Shown: in pieces, positions 3,099 to 12,711 of the stretch
Layout: every line of letters starts with the position of its first letter
How positions within the stretch are numbered: position 1 is the first letter of the stretch
NCBI GenBank assembly: GCA_965214035.1
Contig: OZ243932.1
Coordinates: 1,768,305-1,832,304, forward strand
Source: Gammaproteobacteria bacterium
GTDB taxonomy: Bacteria; Pseudomonadota; Gammaproteobacteria; JAJDYQ01
Length of the DNA stretch: 64,000 bases
Direction: 5' to 3'
Made by a program: the position numbers and the translations under genes
Notes under the pieces: model-generated
Told to the model about the DNA's origin: nothing
Seen by the model: only the letters and a program-made list of their open reading frames with translations
Databases searched by the model: none

Positions 3099-3524
3099 GT
3101 GTCCTGGCTGCTTGACACCAATGTCGTATCCGAACTCCTGCGTCCGTCGCTGCATCCGGCGGTAGAGGTGTGGGTCGAGGAACGTTCAGCGATAGATTTA
3201 TATTTCTCGGCGATTGGTGAAGCGGAGTTGCGCTATGGTGTTGTGACTCTACCTATGGGCCAACGCCGGGATGCGCTTGCTCTCGTGGTCGAGGCAATTT
3301 TGCGAGAAGATTTCAATGGTCGAATCCTTCCTTTCGACTGCGCTGCAGCCCGCCAATATGCAGACATTGCCGCCATGCGCCGCGCCATCGATCGCCCCAT
3401 TGCGCCCACGGATTGCCAGATAGCTGCCATCGCACGTTCGCAGGGAATGGCAGTGGTCACCCGCAACATCCGCGACTTCGAGGGCATGAATGTAGAAGTC
3501 ATCGATCCCTGGACGGCAGCATGA
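3099..3524 (+). CDS. vapC: VapC/FitB PIN-domain toxin
   Basis: LLDTNVVSE...ELRYG...DCQIAAIA...VVTRNIRDF PIN motifs; GTG start at 3099; stop overlaps hsdR ATG. Confidence 0.9.
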   Translation: MSWLLDTNVVSELLRPSLHPAVEVWVEERSAIDLYFSAIGEAELRYGVVTLPMGQRRDALALVVEAILREDFNGRILPFDCAAARQYADIAAMRRAIDRPIAPTDCQIAAIARSQGMAVVTRNIRDFEGMNVEVIDPWTAA

Positions 3525-5656
3525 GCGGCACCAACGAAGCCTTCGCACGAGTCAAGATCGATGCCCTGCTCAAGGATGCAAGCTGGAACCTGACTGATGG
3601 CTCCAGCGTGTTATTCGAACACACCCTGCCCGATGGCACCCAGGCCGACTATGTGCTGTGCGACCGACAGGGCCGGCCCATGGCAGTGCTGGAAGCCAAG
3701 CGGGCGAGCACCGACCCCATAACAGCGCAGGACCAGGGGCGCCACTATGCCGAACAACTCAATGTGCCCTTCGTATTCCTGTCGAACGGCGAGGAAGTGC
3801 GATTTCTGGACCGGGAAACAGACGCCTACGCCCGCCTAATCTCCGGCTTCTATGCCCAGGACGATCTCGAACGGCGCATCGCGGCGCGACAGAACCACCG
3901 CGACCTCGCCACAATCGCCATCGACCGGCAAATCGTCAACCGCAACTACCAGATAGAATGTATTGAAGCACTATCTGCCGAAGTCTCCCGTGGACGACGC
4001 AAACTGCTGATCGAAATGGCGACAGGCACCGGCAAAACCCGCACAGCGGCCGCCTTTATCAAACGACTGTTCGAGGCAGGCAGGGTCACCCGCGTACTGT
4101 TTCTGGTGGACCGCATCGCCCTGGCACGGCAGGCCGAAGACACCTTTGCCGACCACCTGCGGGACTGCCCCTGCCATGTGCTGCGCCCCGGTCGTGGCTT
4201 TGACCGCGCCAAACGCATCACAATCGCCACCCTGCAAACCCTGATTGCAGACTACCACGACCTGTCTCCCGGCTACTTCGATCTGGTCATCACCGACGAA
4301 TGCCACCGCTCCATCTACGGCCAGTGGAGCGGCGTACTGCGACATTTCGATGGCGTTCAACTCGGCCTGACCGCCACCCCCTGCACTGCGGAGACCGACC
4401 ACTCCCCCGATCCGGAAGACAATCAATTCGTGCGCGACACACTGCGATTTTTCGAACTCACCGAACCGACCTATCGCTACACCCTGCGCACCGCCATCCA
4501 TGAGGGTCATCTGGTTCCCTACCGCATATACAGGGCCATGACAGTCAAAACCGCTGCCGAAGGTGGATTCCCGGTCAGCCGCAACGAACTCGACTGGAGC
4601 GCAATGGACGAGCAGACCCGTACCGAATTTGAAAAACAATTCGCCAGTTCGGACCAAGACACCATCACAGTCGATCCGCGCACCCTGGAACGCCAGTTCA
4701 CCATCCCCGAACGCAACCGCGCCCTGGCAAGGGAATTTCGTGATGCGCACGAAAAGGGCTTCATGGGCCGCGACGGCATCCGGCGCTGGCCCGCCTGGGG
4801 CAAAACCATCGTATTCGCGGTGACCAAGCGCCATGCCGAAACACTGGCAGAAATGTTCGATGCACACTTCGCCGACAAGAAACCACACCCCGCGACGCGC
4901 TACGCCGACTTCGTGGTCAGCGATGTCGGTGGAGGTCCCGCATCCGACCCCGGTGCCATCATCAAACGCTTCAAGGAAGAAGAGTTTCCGCAAATACTGG
5001 TCAGCGTCAACATGCTCGATACCGGCTTTGACTGCCCGGAAGTAGTCAATCTGGTCATGGCGCGATTCACCCGCAGCACCATCCTGTACCGGCAGATGCG
5101 CGGGCGCGGCACCCGCAAGGCACCGCATATCGACAAAACCGGATTCACGATCTTCGACTTTGTCGGCGTGACCGATTTTCACGGTGACGACGATACAGCG
5201 GTCAGCGGCAGTCATATCCACGAAACGCAACCCGGCTACACCTCCGGCGAACCCCGGCAACTGCTGACCCTGGATGTCAATGACCACATCGACCCGATGA
5301 GCCGCGACTGGCTCACCCTGGACGAAAATGGTCGGATCGTGCGTCCGCCGGAACACGAAGCACGCGCCGCCAGAATCGGCCTGAAATTCGAGGCATGGCG
5401 GGGCGAACATGAAGGATTCAACACCGAACAGATGCGCTGGGTAGGGCTGATCGGCAGCCGTGTCAAAACAGACACGATGGATGCGTTTGGTGAATGGGAC
5501 TTTGACGGCCATCCGTTCACTGCACTCGGAGGCTACGATCAGGCGCGGCGCGTGTTTGGCGGCGAGCAATCCCTGGAGCAGCTGATCACCGGACTCAACG
5601 CCGCCGTGTTCGGCGGGCCATCAACGACCGGCGACTCCCACATGGAGCAGGGATAA
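3521..5656 (+). CDS. hsdR: Type I restriction enzyme R subunit (EcoEI-like, compact)
   Basis: ADYVL..LEAKR nuclease, QxxxY, MATGTGKT Walker A, DECHRS, MLDTGFD, QMRGRGTR; start ATG 3521 (ATGA overlap with vapC). Confidence 0.9.
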   Translation: MSGTNEAFARVKIDALLKDASWNLTDGSSVLFEHTLPDGTQADYVLCDRQGRPMAVLEAKRASTDPITAQDQGRHYAEQLNVPFVFLSNGEEVRFLDRETDAYARLISGFYAQDDLERRIAARQNHRDLATIAIDRQIVNRNYQIECIEALSAEVSRGRRKLLIEMATGTGKTRTAAAFIKRLFEAGRVTRVLFLVDRIALARQAEDTFADHLRDCPCHVLRPGRGFDRAKRITIATLQTLIADYHDLSPGYFDLVITDECHRSIYGQWSGVLRHFDGVQLGLTATPCTAETDHSPDPEDNQFVRDTLRFFELTEPTYRYTLRTAIHEGHLVPYRIYRAMTVKTAAEGGFPVSRNELDWSAMDEQTRTEFEKQFASSDQDTITVDPRTLERQFTIPERNRALAREFRDAHEKGFMGRDGIRRWPAWGKTIVFAVTKRHAETLAEMFDAHFADKKPHPATRYADFVVSDVGGGPASDPGAIIKRFKEEEFPQILVSVNMLDTGFDCPEVVNLVMARFTRSTILYRQMRGRGTRKAPHIDKTGFTIFDFVGVTDFHGDDDTAVSGSHIHETQPGYTSGEPRQLLTLDVNDHIDPMSRDWLTLDENGRIVRPPEHEARAARIGLKFEAWRGEHEGFNTEQMRWVGLIGSRVKTDTMDAFGEWDFDGHPFTALGGYDQARRVFGGEQSLEQLITGLNAAVFGGPSTTGDSHMEQG

Positions 5657-5660
5657 CGAT

Positions 5661-7292
5661 ATGCCCATGACCCCCGAACTGCGGCGAGGCATCGACCGCA
5701 TCCGCGATTATCTGTTTGGCGGCGGCTACCCGAATCCGGCGCCAAACGCCGAGCAACTCAGTTTTCTGATTTACTTCTACATGTACGAGGCGGCGGACGC
5801 GGCACGGGTGCGTGCGGCAAAGCGACCGGGCACCGCACCCTACAACAGCGCCTTCAAGGACAAATGGACCCTGCGCGACCCACGCAATGCGCCGCAATCG
5901 GGCGAGACCACCGTGCCGGGAGAACGGCTGCGCTGGTCATCCTGGGCGAATGCACTGAACGGTGAGCGGCTGGTCAACTGGGTACGCGAGGAAGTCTTCG
6001 CATTCCATGCCGCAATCGCCGCCAATAGCGCGACCGACTTCATGGACGGTGCCCGGCTGATCATCGACGAACCGACCGTACTCACCCAGGTAGTCAGCCA
6101 GCTCAACGACCTGCATCTGGACCGCGTGGATGCGGACACCAAGGGCGACCTGTTCGAGCATGTCCTGCGCCAGATCCGGCAGGCCGGCGAACTCGGACAA
6201 TTCCGCACACCGCGCCATGTCATCCGCGCCCTGATCCGACTGGTCGATCCCCGTATTGGCGAAACGATATACGACCCGGCGGCCGGCACCGCCGGCTTTC
6301 TGGTCGGTGCCTGGGACCACATCCGGCTCGCCAACTCCTCGCCCGACGGCATTGAAGAAATGGAGGCGGACGGCAAGAAAATCCGGCGCGGGCTGGGCGA
6401 CACACTCAGCCGCGACGCGGTCAGACAGCTACACGAAGCCACCTTCTACGGCACCGATGTTGATCCGCAGATGGTACGCCTCGCCACCATGAACCTGACC
6501 CTGCGCGGCCTCGACCATGTCCATATACTGCGGCGTGACGCCCTGACCCGCTCACTGGACCGCACCGCCAGAGCGGAACTCGGCCTGCCGGCCAATGGAT
6601 TCGATGTCATCCTCGCCAATCCGCCATTCTCTGGCCGACTGGACAAGGACCGCATTGTCGAAGACGTGAAAATCGGCAAAACGGCACAGACCGAACTGCT
6701 GTTCCTGCAATACATGCTCAACCAGTTGCAGGAAGGCGGCCGCTGCGGAGTGGTGGGCCCGGAGGGCGTACTGTTCGGCTCCACCGGCGCACATAAGGAA
6801 CTGCGGCGCAAACTGGTGGAGAACAATACAGTAGAGGCCGTACTGTCGCTGCCAGGGGGAGTATTTAACCCCTATGCCGGAGTCAAGACTTCCGTATTGG
6901 TCTTCCGCAAGGGCGGGACAACGGAGCGGGTGATGTTCCTCCATGCCGATCAGGACGGCTTCAAGCTGGATGCCAAGCACGACCAGCCGATTGAACAGGA
7001 TGATCTGCCCGGCCTGATTGAGGCGTTCCATGACCGGGAGGCGCGATGGGACGCTTGGCACAACCGTGACCTGAAAGCGGACTGGACGGAAAAATGGTGG
7101 TTTGCCGAAGCGGACGAAATTCGTGCTGCTGACTTCAACCTGAGCGCCAACCGTCACCGACCGCAGAATCGCTCGAAGGTAGAGCACCGCGATCCATTGG
7201 AGATTCTGGGAGAGTTGCGAGAGATTGAGACGGAGATTTTGGGGGAGATTGATGAACTAACCGAGGCAGTAGGGGGAGGGTCCGCCCAATGA
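5661..7292 (+). CDS. hsdM: Type I R-M N6-adenine methyltransferase subunit
   Basis: GQFRTPR, YDPAAGTAGFL motif I, ANPPF motif IV. Confidence 0.93.
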   Translation: MPMTPELRRGIDRIRDYLFGGGYPNPAPNAEQLSFLIYFYMYEAADAARVRAAKRPGTAPYNSAFKDKWTLRDPRNAPQSGETTVPGERLRWSSWANALNGERLVNWVREEVFAFHAAIAANSATDFMDGARLIIDEPTVLTQVVSQLNDLHLDRVDADTKGDLFEHVLRQIRQAGELGQFRTPRHVIRALIRLVDPRIGETIYDPAAGTAGFLVGAWDHIRLANSSPDGIEEMEADGKKIRRGLGDTLSRDAVRQLHEATFYGTDVDPQMVRLATMNLTLRGLDHVHILRRDALTRSLDRTARAELGLPANGFDVILANPPFSGRLDKDRIVEDVKIGKTAQTELLFLQYMLNQLQEGGRCGVVGPEGVLFGSTGAHKELRRKLVENNTVEAVLSLPGGVFNPYAGVKTSVLVFRKGGTTERVMFLHADQDGFKLDAKHDQPIEQDDLPGLIEAFHDREARWDAWHNRDLKADWTEKWWFAEADEIRAADFNLSANRHRPQNRSKVEHRDPLEILGELREIETEILGEIDELTEAVGGGSAQ

Positions 7293-8443
7293 CTGCTCAA
7301 GTAGCGCTCGGCGAGATTTGTCAGTTCGTGGGCGGGGGAACACCGTCTCGCAAGATTCACCGGTATTGGGATGGCGACATTCCGTGGGCGACCGTGAAGG
7401 ATTTTGGGCCGGAACAAATTTCCGCAACGGAGGAATTTATATCACAGGAGGGCTTGGACAACTCCGCTTCGAATGTAGTGCCGGCCGGCACTGTTTTGCT
7501 CGTCACAAGGGTTGGCTTGGGCAAGGTTGCGATAGCTGGCGTAGATCTGGCGATCAATCAGGATGTCAAGGCGGTCACGCCATCCAATGATGTCTTGCCA
7601 GAATTCTTGTTCTGGTCGCTAAAGTACTTGGGCCCAGAGATAGAAAGCAGAGGTGCTGGTGCGACCGTAAAGGGAGTGACCTTGCAGGATGTCAGGGAGC
7701 TCGAAATTTTCCTCCCGCCACTCGCCGAACAACGCCGTATCGTCAACATCCTGAACCGGGCGGCGAAGATTGAACGGCTGCGGAAGCAGGCACAGGAGCG
7801 ATTACGGGAATTCATCCCGGCCCTGTTCATCAAAATGTTCGGCGACCCGGCGGAGAATCCGAAGGGGTGGGAGAAACGTAGGATAGGACAAGTTTGCGTG
7901 CAAACAGAGACTCGCAGCCCCGGAGAAACCCCCTCAACTCAATTTCGCTATGTCGATATTTCCGGTATCAACGCTGTTCAGAAGAGAATTGTCACCACCC
8001 GATTGCTGCTTGGCAAAGATGCGCCAAGTCGGGCAAGAAAGGAAATCCGGACGAATGACATTATTGTGTCATCTGTCAGGCCAAACCTGAATGCCGTCGC
8101 AATCGTGCCGGATGAATTGGATCGTGAAATCGCATCGACCGGCTTTTGTGTACTGCGAGCAAATCGGAAACTGATCGAACCGCTCTATTTGTTTTGCCAT
8201 GTCATATCCCCTTTTTTCGTCGAAACAATATCGTCACAAGTCAGAGGAGCAAACTACCCGTCGGTATCCGACAAAGACATAAAGGATATTTGGATTGCTG
8301 TACCTCCACTCAAAGAGCAGCAGCAATTTACAAAGATTGTCGAGTCAGCACACACCCATTCCAGACTGGTAATGCGTGGGTCACATGTTGCCGATAACTT
8401 GACTACTTCCCTTATGTCCCACCTGCCGGAAGCAGACGCATGA
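7289..8443 (+). CDS. hsdS: Type I R-M specificity subunit
   Basis: Two TRDs, GGTPS, PPLAEQRRIV and PPLKEQ conserved repeats; ATGA overlap with hsdM. Confidence 0.93.
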   Translation: MTAQVALGEICQFVGGGTPSRKIHRYWDGDIPWATVKDFGPEQISATEEFISQEGLDNSASNVVPAGTVLLVTRVGLGKVAIAGVDLAINQDVKAVTPSNDVLPEFLFWSLKYLGPEIESRGAGATVKGVTLQDVRELEIFLPPLAEQRRIVNILNRAAKIERLRKQAQERLREFIPALFIKMFGDPAENPKGWEKRRIGQVCVQTETRSPGETPSTQFRYVDISGINAVQKRIVTTRLLLGKDAPSRARKEIRTNDIIVSSVRPNLNAVAIVPDELDREIASTGFCVLRANRKLIEPLYLFCHVISPFFVETISSQVRGANYPSVSDKDIKDIWIAVPPLKEQQQFTKIVESAHTHSRLVMRGSHVADNLTTSLMSHLPEADA

Positions 8444-8600
8444 CCGACATCGTGGATGCCAAACGGTGAAGCAGAATGATGGCTCGGATTTGCAGTCGCG
8501 ACACGGCCCCGGAGCGGGTTGTTCGTCCGATTACCCACCAGATAAACCCATGCTTTCTATTGCCCTGCAGGGAGTTGTCCGGTAGCCTTAGCAGGGCAAG
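8440..8600 (+). pseudogene. vsr: Vsr very-short-patch-repair endonuclease remnant
   Basis: ATG 8440 reads MTDIVDAKR*SRMMARICSRDTAPERVVR..H..F.L...L.G, matching the Vsr N-terminus; in-frame TGA at 8467; similarity fades after ~50 codons. Confidence 0.75.
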
Positions 8601-8692
8601 ACCATTCGGCGAAAACACAGATAAGAAATGGCTACATACCAAGCATCCTTTAGCAATGGCATCCAATACCAGCATATGATCGCGGTACTTTC

Positions 8693-11233
8693 ATGACTAA
8701 TGAACCGAATTTCACGGCTATCGGCAATGAGACGGATAAAATTGAGGTCCGTCTCAGTTATAAAATCGTCGAGCTGTTTTCCGAAGGGCTCTATACCAGC
8801 CCGAATAAGGCCATTGAGGAACTCGTTGCCAATTCCTTTGATGCCGGAGCTCGGGTAGTTCACGTATTTCTCTCGTCGAATCTGCACGATCAGGATGCGA
8901 CGATTGTGGTCTTTGATGATGGCGAGGGCATGGATCCGGAGGGTCTGAAACGCCACTGGCTTATCGGTACCAGTAACAAGCGCAAGTTATCGGTACTCCC
9001 AAAAGGCAGGCAGCAGATCGGAAAGTTCGGGATCGGGAAGCTGGCTACGTATGTGCTCTCCAATCGTCTGACTCATATCAGCAAGTGTAGCGATAAGTAT
9101 TTCTCGACATCCATGGATTATCAAACTATTGACAGGCGGGTTGACCAGGAAATCGAACCGAAGGTGCCCATCAAGCTTGCCCTCCGGGAACTGACCGAGA
9201 ATGAGGCGGAGCAGGCTGTTGAACAATGGATAAAGACCCCGGCGTTCAAAGCTGCGAAGACCGTGCTGTTCGGTAAGGAAAGTCCGGCAACTTGGACGCT
9301 CAGCATCATGTCGTCGCTCAAGCCAAAAGTACATGAGGTCAAGCCAGGGACCCTCGGATGGATTCTGCGCACCGCTCTTCCTCTCCGACCCGACTTCCAA
9401 ATCTGGCTGAACGGCCGGAAATTGAAATCCAGCAAAGCAAGTAAAGACCTGCTCCAACGGTGGGTTCTTGGCAAAGACCTCACCGAACTTCCCAGACCAG
9501 GCCCCAAACAAATTAATGTACAGGAAGACGCGAACGCTGCCACATCCAACGAACATCGCTACGGGCTTGATGTACCAGAACTCGGGCGCATCACGGGATA
9601 TGTGGAGACTTACAAGGATCTCCTTACCGGAGGAAAATCGGATGAGATCGGCCGAAGCTACGGGTTTTTTGTCTATGTGTACGGACGACTTCTCAATGTT
9701 GATGACGGACACTTCGGTATATCTCCAGACGAATTGAGACACGGCACGTTCGGGCGCTTCCGCCTTGTTGTCCATATGGATGGTCTGGATAAAGGACTGC
9801 GGTCGAACCGAGAGGCAATCGGCGAAGGGCCATTGCTTGGCGCGGCCCAAGATGTACTGCGAGCAATCTTTAACGCGGTGCGTCCTATCATCGAGACGCA
9901 TGACAAGGAAGAGGCACCGGGAGCAAAATTGGCTCGCATGATGGCAGCCAGCCCTGCCAGCCTGTCTCGCCAACCAATCGTAACCCTGTCACGTGCGGTT
10001 GCAGACGGCACCGCCAAATCCCGCTACTTGATCGTCCCAGAGTGTGAAACAGAGGAAGAGAGGGAGACCTTCCTCGCCGATCTCGAAAGCCGGGCCGGCA
10101 ACGAGGCAGAACGCTTTATCACTGATGTCAAGACCGACTTCAAAGGATCGTCTCTTGATGGAATTGCCAAATTCGATACGCAGTCAGGCGTTTTGCACCT
10201 AAATGCGTGGCATCCCTTTATCGCTACTTTCCACGACGAATTCACGGACAAGCGGCTTGGACAGCCGTTGGAGTTACTGGCCATGGCTGAAGTTCTCATG
10301 GAGGCGCACCTCCATATCACTGGTGTCGATACCTCGAAAATTGAGAGCTTTCTCTCGTTACGCGATCTGCTATTGCGAAATCTCACCAATGAATCAGGCC
10401 GGCAGAGCGCCTTATCGGTGGCCAACACACTCTCGGAGGCGCGTAACAACCCGGGCCGTCTGGAAGAAGCCGTTTGCAACGCATTCCGCAGCCTTGGCTT
10501 CGACATAACGCCTCTTGGAAACAAAGTTAAACCGGATGGCGTAGCAGCCGCTCACTTATCTGCCGATGAGCAGGGATCTCGAAGTTATAAAGTAAGCCTA
10601 GAGGCGAAGAGTAAGGAAACATCTGGTACAGCGGTTTCTGCGAAGGACATTGGAATCTCCAGAGTCGCTCGACATCGAGATAATTACGAATGCGATCACG
10701 CGATAGTTGTAGCGCCAGCATTTCCGACATCTCAAGGTGGAGGTTCTGCCTTGGGAGAGGAAATTAAAACTAACCGGGAACAATCGGGTAAAACCATCAC
10801 TCTCATTGCTATCGATGATCTCGCCAGGCTCGTTCGACTTCGGCCTGTAAAGCAGGTCGGTCTCCTGAAACTCCGGGAATTGTTTCAGTGCAGCCTCCCC
10901 AACCAAAGCCATGAATGGGTCGAATCTATTCATAAAAAAACCGTGAAAAAGCCTCCTTACCGCCAGATCGTCGAAACGATTCAGTCGTTACAAAGAAAAC
11001 ATCAGAAAGAACCGGTTGACTACTCTGCACTTCGCATTGAACTCAGCCACCTCGATCCCCCTATTAATTACCAGACAAACGACAAACTCTTCGAGTTGTG
11101 CAGGGGAATGATGCAAATGGCCCCGGGTGCGATGTTCGCAGGCCCTAAGACGGTTGAGCTTGACCAAAGTGCAGATAATGTGGTCGCTGCCATTGAGGCG
11201 GCCATGCAGGACTATCCACCGGATGAACGCTAA
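8693..11233 (+). CDS. GHKL/MORC-type ATPase fused to C-terminal PD-(D/E)xK (Mrr-like) endonuclease
   Basis: IEELVANSFDA, DDGEGM and GKFGIGKLA GHKL motifs; C-terminal EEAVCNAFRSLGF..KPDG..LEAKSK nuclease signature. Confidence 0.8.
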   Translation: MTNEPNFTAIGNETDKIEVRLSYKIVELFSEGLYTSPNKAIEELVANSFDAGARVVHVFLSSNLHDQDATIVVFDDGEGMDPEGLKRHWLIGTSNKRKLSVLPKGRQQIGKFGIGKLATYVLSNRLTHISKCSDKYFSTSMDYQTIDRRVDQEIEPKVPIKLALRELTENEAEQAVEQWIKTPAFKAAKTVLFGKESPATWTLSIMSSLKPKVHEVKPGTLGWILRTALPLRPDFQIWLNGRKLKSSKASKDLLQRWVLGKDLTELPRPGPKQINVQEDANAATSNEHRYGLDVPELGRITGYVETYKDLLTGGKSDEIGRSYGFFVYVYGRLLNVDDGHFGISPDELRHGTFGRFRLVVHMDGLDKGLRSNREAIGEGPLLGAAQDVLRAIFNAVRPIIETHDKEEAPGAKLARMMAASPASLSRQPIVTLSRAVADGTAKSRYLIVPECETEEERETFLADLESRAGNEAERFITDVKTDFKGSSLDGIAKFDTQSGVLHLNAWHPFIATFHDEFTDKRLGQPLELLAMAEVLMEAHLHITGVDTSKIESFLSLRDLLLRNLTNESGRQSALSVANTLSEARNNPGRLEEAVCNAFRSLGFDITPLGNKVKPDGVAAAHLSADEQGSRSYKVSLEAKSKETSGTAVSAKDIGISRVARHRDNYECDHAIVVAPAFPTSQGGGSALGEEIKTNREQSGKTITLIAIDDLARLVRLRPVKQVGLLKLRELFQCSLPNQSHEWVESIHKKTVKKPPYRQIVETIQSLQRKHQKEPVDYSALRIELSHLDPPINYQTNDKLFELCRGMMQMAPGAMFAGPKTVELDQSADNVVAAIEAAMQDYPPDER

Positions 11234-11251
11234 AGAAATGAGCATAAACCG

Positions 11252-12487
11252 ATGAACACACCTCGCGAAAAAAACATCTATGAAATTCTCGGACGCAACT
11301 CGGTTCATCCGTTCCCTGCACGGATGGCACCGGGTCTTGCGCTTGAGGTCATTGCAGAATGCCGGAAACCGCTGCGTATTCTCGACCCGATGTCAGGGTC
11401 CGGTACAGTGCTCGCTGTCGCACAGGCCAAAGGGCATCAGGCGGTCGGTACTGACCTTGACCCCCTCGCCGTACTGATTTCCAGAGCATGGACAACCGCT
11501 ATTGATGTCGAATGCCTGCGGGATACGGCTGCCAATGTGTTGCTTGAGGCCCGCCAGATATTCAAATGTCTGCCGACACGGGACGCCTATCCCGTGAACT
11601 CGGACCCTGAGACCCGAAAATTTGTAAGGTACTGGTTTGATGGTTATGCACGGCGACAGCTAACTTCACTGACCAGGGCAATACAGGGAGTTCAGGACAG
11701 CTCAATCCGGGATGCACTCTGGTGCGCCTTTTCACGCCTGATCATCAGCAAGCAGTCCGGTGCATCGCTGGCGATGGACTTGTCTCACAGCCGCCCGCAT
11801 CGGAAGTTTGGACGCGCCCCCGCAAAACCCTTTCGCAAATTTTTGTTCGCCGTGGAACGTGTTGCTGCAAACAGTATCGATAAAAAGAACCAGAGGCCCG
11901 GTGGCGTGCAGGTTTATGAAGGAGATGCCCGCCGCCTTGAACTCATCGATGGTTCCATTGATCTGGCGATCACGTCTCCTCCGTATCTGAATGCGATTGA
12001 CTACCTGCGATGCAGTAAATTTTCGCTGGTATGGATGGGCTACTCCGTCGGCGAAATCCGCCGCATCAGGGCAAGGACAGTCGGCGCTGAAGTGGGAGCA
12101 GGGTCACACGATGCCCAAGCGACTCAAAGGGTGTTGTCCGAACTAAAGTTGCAACCGAAACTACCCGCTCGACAGGAAGCCATTCTCACCCGTTACATCA
12201 ACGACATGCAGCGTTCAATCAATGAGATATCCCGGGTTCTCACAAACGACGGGAAGGCCGTATATGTGGTTGGCGAGAATACGATACACGGTACATTTAT
12301 CCCCAATGCCGACATTATGGAGGCCACCGCCCGTATTGCCGGCCTGCGATGTATTGCGCGTCGTTCCAGAGAGCTGCCGGCGAACCGCCGGTACCTGCCC
12401 CCTCCATCGCAACAACGACAAGCCGCAGCACTTGACAAGCGTCTAAGGCGCGAGGTAATACTCACATTCCAGAAAGCAGCAGCTTAG
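11252..12487 (+). CDS. Site-specific DNA amino-methyltransferase (probably N4-cytosine, alpha order)
   Basis: HPFPARM, ILDPMSGSGT motif I, DLDP, ITSPPYLNAIDY motif IV. Confidence 0.85.
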   Translation: MNTPREKNIYEILGRNSVHPFPARMAPGLALEVIAECRKPLRILDPMSGSGTVLAVAQAKGHQAVGTDLDPLAVLISRAWTTAIDVECLRDTAANVLLEARQIFKCLPTRDAYPVNSDPETRKFVRYWFDGYARRQLTSLTRAIQGVQDSSIRDALWCAFSRLIISKQSGASLAMDLSHSRPHRKFGRAPAKPFRKFLFAVERVAANSIDKKNQRPGGVQVYEGDARRLELIDGSIDLAITSPPYLNAIDYLRCSKFSLVWMGYSVGEIRRIRARTVGAEVGAGSHDAQATQRVLSELKLQPKLPARQEAILTRYINDMQRSINEISRVLTNDGKAVYVVGENTIHGTFIPNADIMEATARIAGLRCIARRSRELPANRRYLPPPSQQRQAAALDKRLRREVILTFQKAAA

Positions 12488-12516
12488 TGTCATATTGATT
12501 GAGGATTACCTCTAAC

Positions 12517-12711
12517 ATGCAAAACCGAAAAGAATCAAAGCTGGACACAGAAAAAATCATCAGGAAAAACAAGAACATCGACAAGGCGGTCGTTTCTGCC
12601 CACGAACCGCTGGAGCAGGAACTGAGCAAACTGGGCGTGGAGACTAAACCCACATTTAACATTGAGCCACCCCTAGGGTGTTCCAGCATCACTGGAACAA
12701 ACTTTTTCTGA
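12517..12711 (+). CDS. Small charged hypothetical protein
   Basis: GAGGA upstream of ATG 12517; fills the gap between the MTase and convergent fkpB. Confidence 0.45.
   Translation: MQNRKESKLDTEKIIRKNKNIDKAVVSAHEPLEQELSKLGVETKPTFNIEPPLGCSSITGTNFF

Follow-up and report, generated by a model that had tools for sequence, protein, structure and literature searches.

What is encoded by a gene pair in which a predicted ATPase-nuclease is followed, almost without a gap, by a DNA methyltransferase (MTase), in a region that already holds a type I restriction-modification (R-M) operon? The question arises from a 64,000-nt stretch of the genome of a Gammaproteobacteria bacterium (GenBank assembly GCA_965214035.1, contig OZ243932.1, positions 1,768,305 to 1,832,304), referred to here as the window. 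The pair consists of an 846-amino-acid (aa) protein with a GHKL ATPase domain and a 411-aa amino-MTase. An earlier interpretation based on the letters of the DNA (the sequence-only reading) had described two open reading frames (ORFs) 18 bp apart and proposed that they form a candidate ATP-clamp restriction system that would not fit types I-IV neatly. The positions and lengths of both ORFs (Table 1) and the 18-nt spacer between them (11234-11251) were as it had given them. Our analyses suggest that the pair is probably a compact two-gene R-M module, in which the GHKL-nuclease would restrict and the MTase would modify DNA. It is a new member of a class that computational work foresaw in 2008 and for which we found no experimental characterisation in the literature searched.

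The two genes are conserved as a unit. We fetched 97 loci, 17 of them from genomes and 80 from metagenomes (the best of 453), and kept the 58 in which the nuclease gene was full-length and was followed by 1300 bp or more of DNA, dropping the other 39. A homologue of the MTase lay directly downstream of the nuclease gene in 58/58 loci. In 56 of these the two genes share a strand, the matched stretches being 14-113 bp apart, and in two they converge. In the 58 aligned pairs, residues E43, N47, D50, D75, G77 and G110-K116 of the ATPase were invariant, as were D615 and K639 of the nuclease and the DPMxGSGT and SPPY motifs of the MTase. E591 of the nuclease was kept in 56 pairs, and the position of E637 was occupied by E in 56 and by D in two. 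Pairwise distances in one protein were correlated with those in the other (Mantel r 0.87, a value that none of 2000 permutations reached). Relatedness alone adds to such a value; the hosts, however, span several phyla. Comparison of the neighbourhoods of these loci found no third conserved gene around the pair, in keeping with the earlier proposal of a two-gene module with no superfamily 2 (SF2) motor of its own.

The association extends to more divergent proteins. Six distant full-length relatives, 28-36% identical to the 846-aa protein, were obtained from scans of viral contigs and genomes. The catalytic residues of both ATPase and nuclease were kept in all six, one of them having E in place of D615. 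In five, a DNA MTase adjoins the nuclease gene, and these enzymes come from three MTase families. Three belong to the same family as the MTase in the window, placed downstream (locus L117), upstream (L114) or convergently (L015). Another (L113) is a beta-class N6_N4_Mtase of 295 aa, with an ORF that starts 3 bases past the end of the nuclease ORF, and in the fifth (L115) the GHKL-nuclease gene is accompanied by an intact Vsr gene and a convergent C5 MTase. The presence of a partner MTase, of whatever family, is what restriction-modification logic predicts. Thus, a nuclease and an MTase with intact motifs are encoded together, conserved as a unit in 58/58 loci and co-varying, which is what generally characterises an R-M system.

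We then considered what each protein is. The 846-aa protein contains the GHKL motifs ELVANSFDA (residues 43-51), DDGEGM (75-80) and GKFGIGK (110-116), followed towards the C-terminus by KPDG (613-616) and LEAKSK (636-641). All of the motifs quoted in the sequence-only reading are found in the translations and stand above chance by the score of the Pfam model HATPase_c_3, by their invariance in the 58 pairs and by the endonuclease fold. HATPase_c_3 was the sole Pfam match of the protein (residues 36-159, 1.5e-22, 80.6 bits, the cut-off being 25). With ExxxN, DxGxG and GxxGxG motifs and a curated model above its cut-off, the protein belongs to the GHKL superfamily. A full-length AlphaFold model was built from an alignment of 64 full-length homologues (mean pLDDT 87.6). 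In Foldseek searches the N-terminal part of this model matched TRAP1/Hsp90 (4.4e-15) and MORC3 (6o1e, 7.5e-15 over 428 columns, TMt 0.57), and the top matches also included MORC2 in complex with DNA (9cdh and 9cdj), MORC4 and SMCHD1 (6mw7). The ATPase modules of MORC3, MORC2, MORC4 and SMCHD1 aligned over 419-451 columns, with TMt values of 0.43-0.57. The modelled arrangement, a GHKL domain with an S5-fold transducer behind it, is therefore that of MORC and paraMORC proteins. In the middle region that comes next, N504 and H507 were invariant among the 64 sequences.

The C-terminal part adopts, in the models, a restriction-endonuclease fold, as the sequence-only reading had anticipated and as AlphaFold, Foldseek and VIA-align all indicate. 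The nuclease domain was identified by fold comparison alone, because a profile search of the PDB with the C-terminal 282 residues found no relative by sequence (best E 1.7). Residues 565-846 were modelled separately from 43 locus-derived homologues (pLDDT 89.6). By VIA-align, residues 572-743 were most similar to FokI (2fok_A, Z 16.1, root-mean-square deviation 2.3 Å, 153 residues aligned), followed by N.BspD6I (Z 14.4), HindIII (Z 14.2) and the small BspD6I subunit (Z 14.1); Foldseek returned FokI (4.7e-6) and HindIII (7.8e-6), then AspBHI and MspJI. Among the 43 family C-termini, the Pfam family Mrr_cat was matched by 15 (best 1.6e-5) and FokI_cleav_dom by nine (best 0.019). Residues D615, E637 and K639 are presumably the equivalents of the FokI catalytic triad, to judge from the aligned ranges. 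Downstream of the nuclease domain, residues 751-836 matched many winged-helix domains; with Z values of 7-8.6, which are middling, we assign this part only tentatively as a winged helix and a candidate for DNA binding.

The MTase carries the motifs DPMSGSGT (residues 45-52) and TSPPY (241-245). It matched the PADLOC Type II MTase model MTase_II PDLC03322 over residues 17-378 (4.6e-29) and, in its S-adenosylmethionine-binding part, the Pfam family N6_N4_Mtase (3.3e-8). Motif I lies ~190 residues ahead of motif IV, as in enzymes of alpha order. The SPPY motif is used in the MTase literature as a heuristic sign of N4-methylcytosine (m4C), and the m4C mark proposed in the sequence-only reading is a hypothesis for the product. 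The Atlas clusters nearest to this protein are named both N4-cytosine and adenine, and sequence therefore does not decide between m4C and N6-methyladenine (m6A). On a plasmid of Allorhizobium pseudoryzae (NZ_CP049245.1; L098, 1040-7179), an MTase homologue with 39.5% identity lies divergent from an operon for three proteins: a paralogous MTase (24% identity), a GHKL protein of 756 aa and an unknown protein of 409 aa. That GHKL protein is annotated as a sensor histidine kinase and resembles the 846-aa protein in the ATP-binding domain only, and this clade of MTases may thus partner other GHKL ATPases too.

The pair stands directly behind a type I operon, hsdRMS (3413-8443), that ends 249 bp before the GHKL start, as had been noted earlier. 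One may ask whether it belongs to that operon. Upstream context was counted in the 23 of the 58 loci for which 5 kb or more of DNA before the pair was available. The same hsd operon (at least 70% identical) was found upstream in 6/23, only distant type I genes in 2/23 and no type I gene in 15/23. An accessory of a type I system would co-occur obligately with hsdRMS, and the pair does not. A congeneric genome (G001) is informative here. Its flanks are 91-96% identical to the window at the nucleotide level, with homology running through 8537, including a stretch with a Vsr remnant, and resuming at 12566. It keeps hsdR, hsdM and hsdS at the same site, with 94, 92 and 83% aa identity, and has other cargo in the slot. 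Thus the pair is a cargo unit of ~4.0 kb and not a component of the type I system. In G001 (L111, 1906-4666, minus strand) the slot holds a gene for a 285-aa ClpP-like SDH-type protease, small ORFs and a gene for a 423-aa protein with Schlafen AlbA_2 and HATPase_c_4 domains. The slot after hsdS looks like a variable site for defence cargo.

The pair is widespread but sparsely distributed, and mobile. A word-indexed search in which 8000 candidates were scored gave 2034 homologues of the 846-aa protein at E ≤1e-3, and among representatives of 50%-identity clusters there were 3003 matches at E ≤1e-3 and 457 at E ≤1e-30; the full-length proteins among the matches listed are mostly of 800-900 aa. 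Close to home, 30 relatives yielded no orthologue of the ATPase-nuclease, giving weak matches to the GHKL domain only. When 401 genomes of the phylum were searched with a family profile at E ≤1e-30, with up to two candidates scored per genome, the window's own genome alone was matched. A tblastn search against plasmids with the 846-aa protein returned N-terminal GHKL matches only, all of which fell short of 80% coverage of the query. Copies 72-80% identical were found in metagenome-assembled genomes (MAGs) labelled Alphaproteobacteria, Gammaproteobacteria, Binatia and Thermoanaerobaculia, and an archaeal MAG, of a Cenarchaeum sp. (L012, 8001-11832), carries the pair with 53-54% identity to both proteins. 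The archaeal copy, together with the occurrence of several of the closest bacterial copies in MAGs of very different phyla, indicates that the pair has been transferred across domains.

How does the pair relate to systems already described? Families of GHKL ATPases with an S5 domain, termed paraMORCs, were found in R-M operons by Iyer, Abhiman and Aravind (2008, PMC2292703). MORCs proper are united there by a family-specific motif that paraMORCs lack. One of them, paraMORC3, is common in proteobacteria and bacteroidetes and is described there as an N-terminal GHKL-S5 module fused to a C-terminal nuclease of restriction-endonuclease fold with an E-D-ExK signature, sporadically distributed and laterally mobile, in R-M neighbourhoods that include methylases and Vsr. 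The 846-aa protein has the corresponding set of residues (E591, D615, E637 and K639). It differs in that the paraMORC3 nuclease was called RecB-like (PMC2292703) whereas ours is FokI/Mrr-like, and in that paraMORC3 genes often stand alone whereas an MTase is adjacent in 58/58 loci of the present family. In the same year, Orlowski and Bujnicki (PMC2441816) reported five REBASE subfamilies of Type II restriction enzymes with an N-terminal GHKL domain, which is the likeness to our MTase-paired protein. Among these, the putative enzyme R.VeiORF1182P has a GHKL N-terminus and a PD-(D/E)XK C-terminus, the same two folds in the same order when compared by description, and R.HgiDII, a confirmed enzyme, has a C-terminus whose fold was unassigned in that account (PMC2441816). 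By architecture, the 846-aa protein fits the descriptions of paraMORC3 and R.VeiORF1182P. The sequence-only reading had held that the pair would not match the classical types I-IV neatly. This stands in so far as it maps cleanly to no already characterised system, but the novelty was overstated, the architecture having been predicted in 2008 (PMC2292703, PMC2441816).

Several other families were tried and rejected. The BbrUII/HgiDII family (NCBIfam NF050001) matched at 61.5 bits against a cut-off of 550, over profile positions 8-143 of 659, that is, the GHKL part only. Shedu systems of the GHKL type, for which a clamp-like dimer has been modelled in VcSduA (PMC12137116), similarly fuse a GHKL ATPase to a PD-(D/E)xK nuclease. 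VcSduA, however, is a single-gene system of ~600 aa with a DUF4263 nuclease and no MTase, whereas members of the present family are always paired with one; DUF4263 was matched by none of the 43 C-termini at E ≤1, and no PADLOC Shedu model matched at E ≤0.01. In Tiamat, too, a GHL ATPase carries a PD-(D/E)xK nuclease at its C-terminus, and methyltransferases are sometimes encoded nearby (bioRxiv 10.64898/2026.09.30.754977). It differs in size, ~1500 aa by the PADLOC TmtA model, and in its DUF3684 core. The TmtA model (1486 positions) matched residues 31-115 of our protein only (E 0.0019), and Pfam gave no DUF3684 match. Eukaryotic MORC2, MORC3 and SMCHD1, as well as MutL and Hsp90, share the GHKL and transducer fold with the 846-aa protein but have neither a fused PD-(D/E)xK nuclease nor an MTase partner. 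FokI (PDB 2fok/1fok), a Type IIS enzyme whose cleavage domain is the best structural match to residues 572-743 and has one active site, has no ATPase; its DNA-recognition domain is N-terminal and unrelated, and sequence identity is ~16%.

In GHKL ATPases, ATP binding leads to dimerisation of the N-terminal domains and thereby to the action of a gate or clamp, and FokI must dimerise to cut both DNA strands. In the R-M module that we favour, the MTase would mark host DNA, and the ATPase-nuclease would bind DNA that is unmodified. ATP binding would then dimerise the GHKL domains, so that the clamp closes and two nuclease domains, each with a single active site, meet and cut both strands. Methylation by the partner would block either the binding or the licensing of the nuclease. 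The FokI-like nuclease suggests a simple rule for such an enzyme, namely that ATP-driven dimerisation licenses cutting. A homodimer prediction with two copies of residues 430-846 scored 0.10 (mark 0.42) and weighs neither way. An ATPase with all of its catalytic residues conserved argues against an orthodox Type II (Type IIP) identity, as such enzymes depend on Mg, cut inside a palindrome and use no nucleotide cofactor. There is also a precedent for the coupling of the two activities: in VcSduA, an ATPase mutant and a nuclease mutant each lose phage defence (PMC12137116), and ATPase-nuclease coupling of such a kind therefore exists in nature.

A number of points weigh against this R-M interpretation or against its ATP-gated form. 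Many paraMORC3 genes are standalone (PMC2292703). HgiDII, which bears a GHKL domain, is classed among the orthodox Type II enzymes that cut palindromes (PMC2441816), and the domain thus need not imply ATP-gated cutting. In one distant relative (L014), 8 kb of surrounding DNA contain no MTase gene. Neither protein of the pair has a hypervariable recognition block of the sort seen where R-M specificities diversify. The cassette has only ~35 conserved bases 5' of the GHKL start, with no clear promoter. Finally, a search of open-access PMC and bioRxiv, with subscription journals and REBASE outside it, found no experimental work, methylome or cleavage data on MTase-paired GHKL-nucleases of the present family.

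We also weighed other explanations. In one, the pair is a complex resembling Type III R-M enzymes, in which the MTase recognises the sequence and recruits or licenses a nonspecific ATPase-nuclease. The lack of a variable recognition block in both proteins is in its favour, as are the tight coupling of the genes (the 18-bp gap) and their co-inheritance. Yet the MTases of relatives belong to three unrelated families, which is hard to fit with a conserved protein-protein interface, and the nuclease protein has a winged helix of its own, if our tentative assignment is right; we consider this explanation unlikely. The protein could instead be an infection sensor and effector of the Shedu kind that acts independently of methylation, the MTase being an unrelated or regulatory passenger. 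Such a role would have a parallel in VcSduA (GHKL and DUF4263), which defends as a single gene (PMC12137116), would suit the MTase-less relative and would agree with the presence in the Atlas of GHKL clusters bearing SduA_C as more remote look-alikes (score 0.90). It is made improbable by the pairing in 58/58 loci and the co-variation and by the affinities of the C-termini, with DUF4263 at 0/43 and Mrr_cat at 15/43, and no PADLOC Shedu match.

Two further explanations are less probable still. The position of the pair directly behind a close hsd operon, in the window and in 6/23 loci across phyla, could mean that hsdR, hsdM, hsdS, the GHKL-nuclease and the MTase are one five-gene system, with the pair modulating the type I enzyme. 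This is largely refuted by the loci in which type I genes are absent upstream (15/23) or only distant (2/23) and by the congeneric genome, in which hsdRMS is accompanied by different cargo. A methyl-directed repair or nicking module outside defence, made of a MutL-like ATPase and a MutH-like nuclease, is suggested by the resemblance of the ATPase to MutL and MORC and by Vsr, which is intact beside one distant relative (L115) and a remnant beside the copy in the window. It would, however, accord poorly with a sparse, horizontally mobile distribution, with a pair that is an insertion or deletion in a cargo slot and with its setting among other defence genes, and we consider it very unlikely. Within the R-M interpretation itself there is a bolder variant, in which the ATPase-nuclease reads no sequence at all; a sliding or loop-capturing clamp would sense the lack of methyl marks and then dimerise the FokI-like domains. 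We raise it because the architecture is uniform and lacks a variable block, because partners come from three MTase families (amino-MTases of two classes, and a C5 enzyme with Vsr, swapped among relatives) and because the ATPase is of the MutL/MORC kind, although we think it unlikely to be correct. If it were, it would represent an ATP-dependent mode of restriction outside Types I-IV and, in prokaryotes, a counterpart to the reading of epigenetic state by MORC proteins.

The appeal of the pair lies in experiments on it rather than in any surprise. It was proposed in 2008 that prokaryotic MORC-like ATPases were the ancestors of the eukaryotic MORC chromatin regulators and are parts of restriction systems. 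With two genes, no helicase, intact catalytic residues and a confident model, the pair is a clean minimal candidate for biochemistry on that proposal. A GHKL clamp that couples methylation status to cleavage, if shown, would fill a gap in the classification of R-M systems and inform the mechanisms of MORC and MutL. Such pairs are currently annotated as an 'ATP-binding protein' and an orphan methyltransferase, and current tools therefore probably overlook them as defence systems.

Table 1 Features of the two-gene cassette and its surroundings (positions are those of the window)
Feature	Residues or size	Position (nt)	Strand	Basis
Type I operon, upstream of the pair: hsdR		3413-5656		
Type I operon, upstream of the pair: hsdM		5661-7292		
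Type I operon, upstream of the pair: hsdS		7289-8443		
Two-gene cassette, insertion/deletion unit	~4.0 kb	8538-12565	+	Break points against congeneric genome G001
GHKL ATPase-nuclease gene (putative restriction component)	846 aa	8693-11233	+	ORF and translation
GHKL (Bergerat) ATP-binding domain and S5-like transducer	~1-430	8693-9982	+	Foldseek and motifs
Middle region, helical with small beta-sheet	~431-571	9983-10405	+	Secondary structure of model
PD-(D/E)xK nuclease domain, FokI-cleavage-domain-like	572-743	10406-10921	+	Fold comparison of model
Winged-helix-like domain, candidate DNA-binding part	751-836	10943-11200	+	VIA-align, tentative
Amino-methyltransferase gene (putative modification component)	411 aa	11252-12487	+	ORF and translation
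Terminator-like hairpin with T run, 3' of MTase gene		12679-12699	+	Consensus scan; weak

The surroundings of the cassette add some detail. Housekeeping genes on the opposite strand enclose the block formed by the hsd operon and the pair, with TRAP transporter genes to one side of it and FKBP, lspA, ileS and ribF to the other. No convincing direct or inverted repeats were found at the cassette borders. Scans of the region for promoters and terminators gave counts no higher than shuffled expectation, and the hairpin behind the MTase gene is considered weak because such sites in the region match that expectation in number. The bases conserved upstream of the GHKL start (~8660-8692) are common to close relatives in differing contexts. 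They contain no obvious Shine-Dalgarno sequence, and the stretch may serve the cassette as a minimal promoter or leader of its own.

In the type I operon, hsdR has two candidate starts (TTG at 3413 and ATG at 3521), and its closest model is EcoAI/FtnUII (1.4e-77, below the cut-off of that model). Between phyla, identity is 77-87% for hsdR and hsdM and 26-35% for hsdS, except for 61% over 84 residues in one locus (L013), so that the specificity subunit is far more variable than the enzyme genes. The interval between hsdS and the GHKL gene includes the broken N-terminal remnant of a Vsr-like gene (8434-8540), which has an in-frame stop, the frame ending after ~35 codons. Truncated Vsr starts of a similar kind lie 3' of hsdS in four other loci (L001, L002, L004 and L005).

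Decayed copies of the pair were also seen. In L013 (8001-8351) the hsd operon is followed by just the first 117 GHKL codons, with no MTase, and in L058 (3596-5923) the GHKL gene matches no further than residue 716 and directly adjoins the final 57 MTase codons. A protein of ~620-640 aa with a P-loop (a GxxxxGKT-type motif near residue 95) recurs beside the pair, on either side, in six loci (L018, L019, L029, L040, L062 and L088); its gene, too, probably belongs to the defence genes of these islands. Relaxase genes of the TrwC type were seen close by in three loci.

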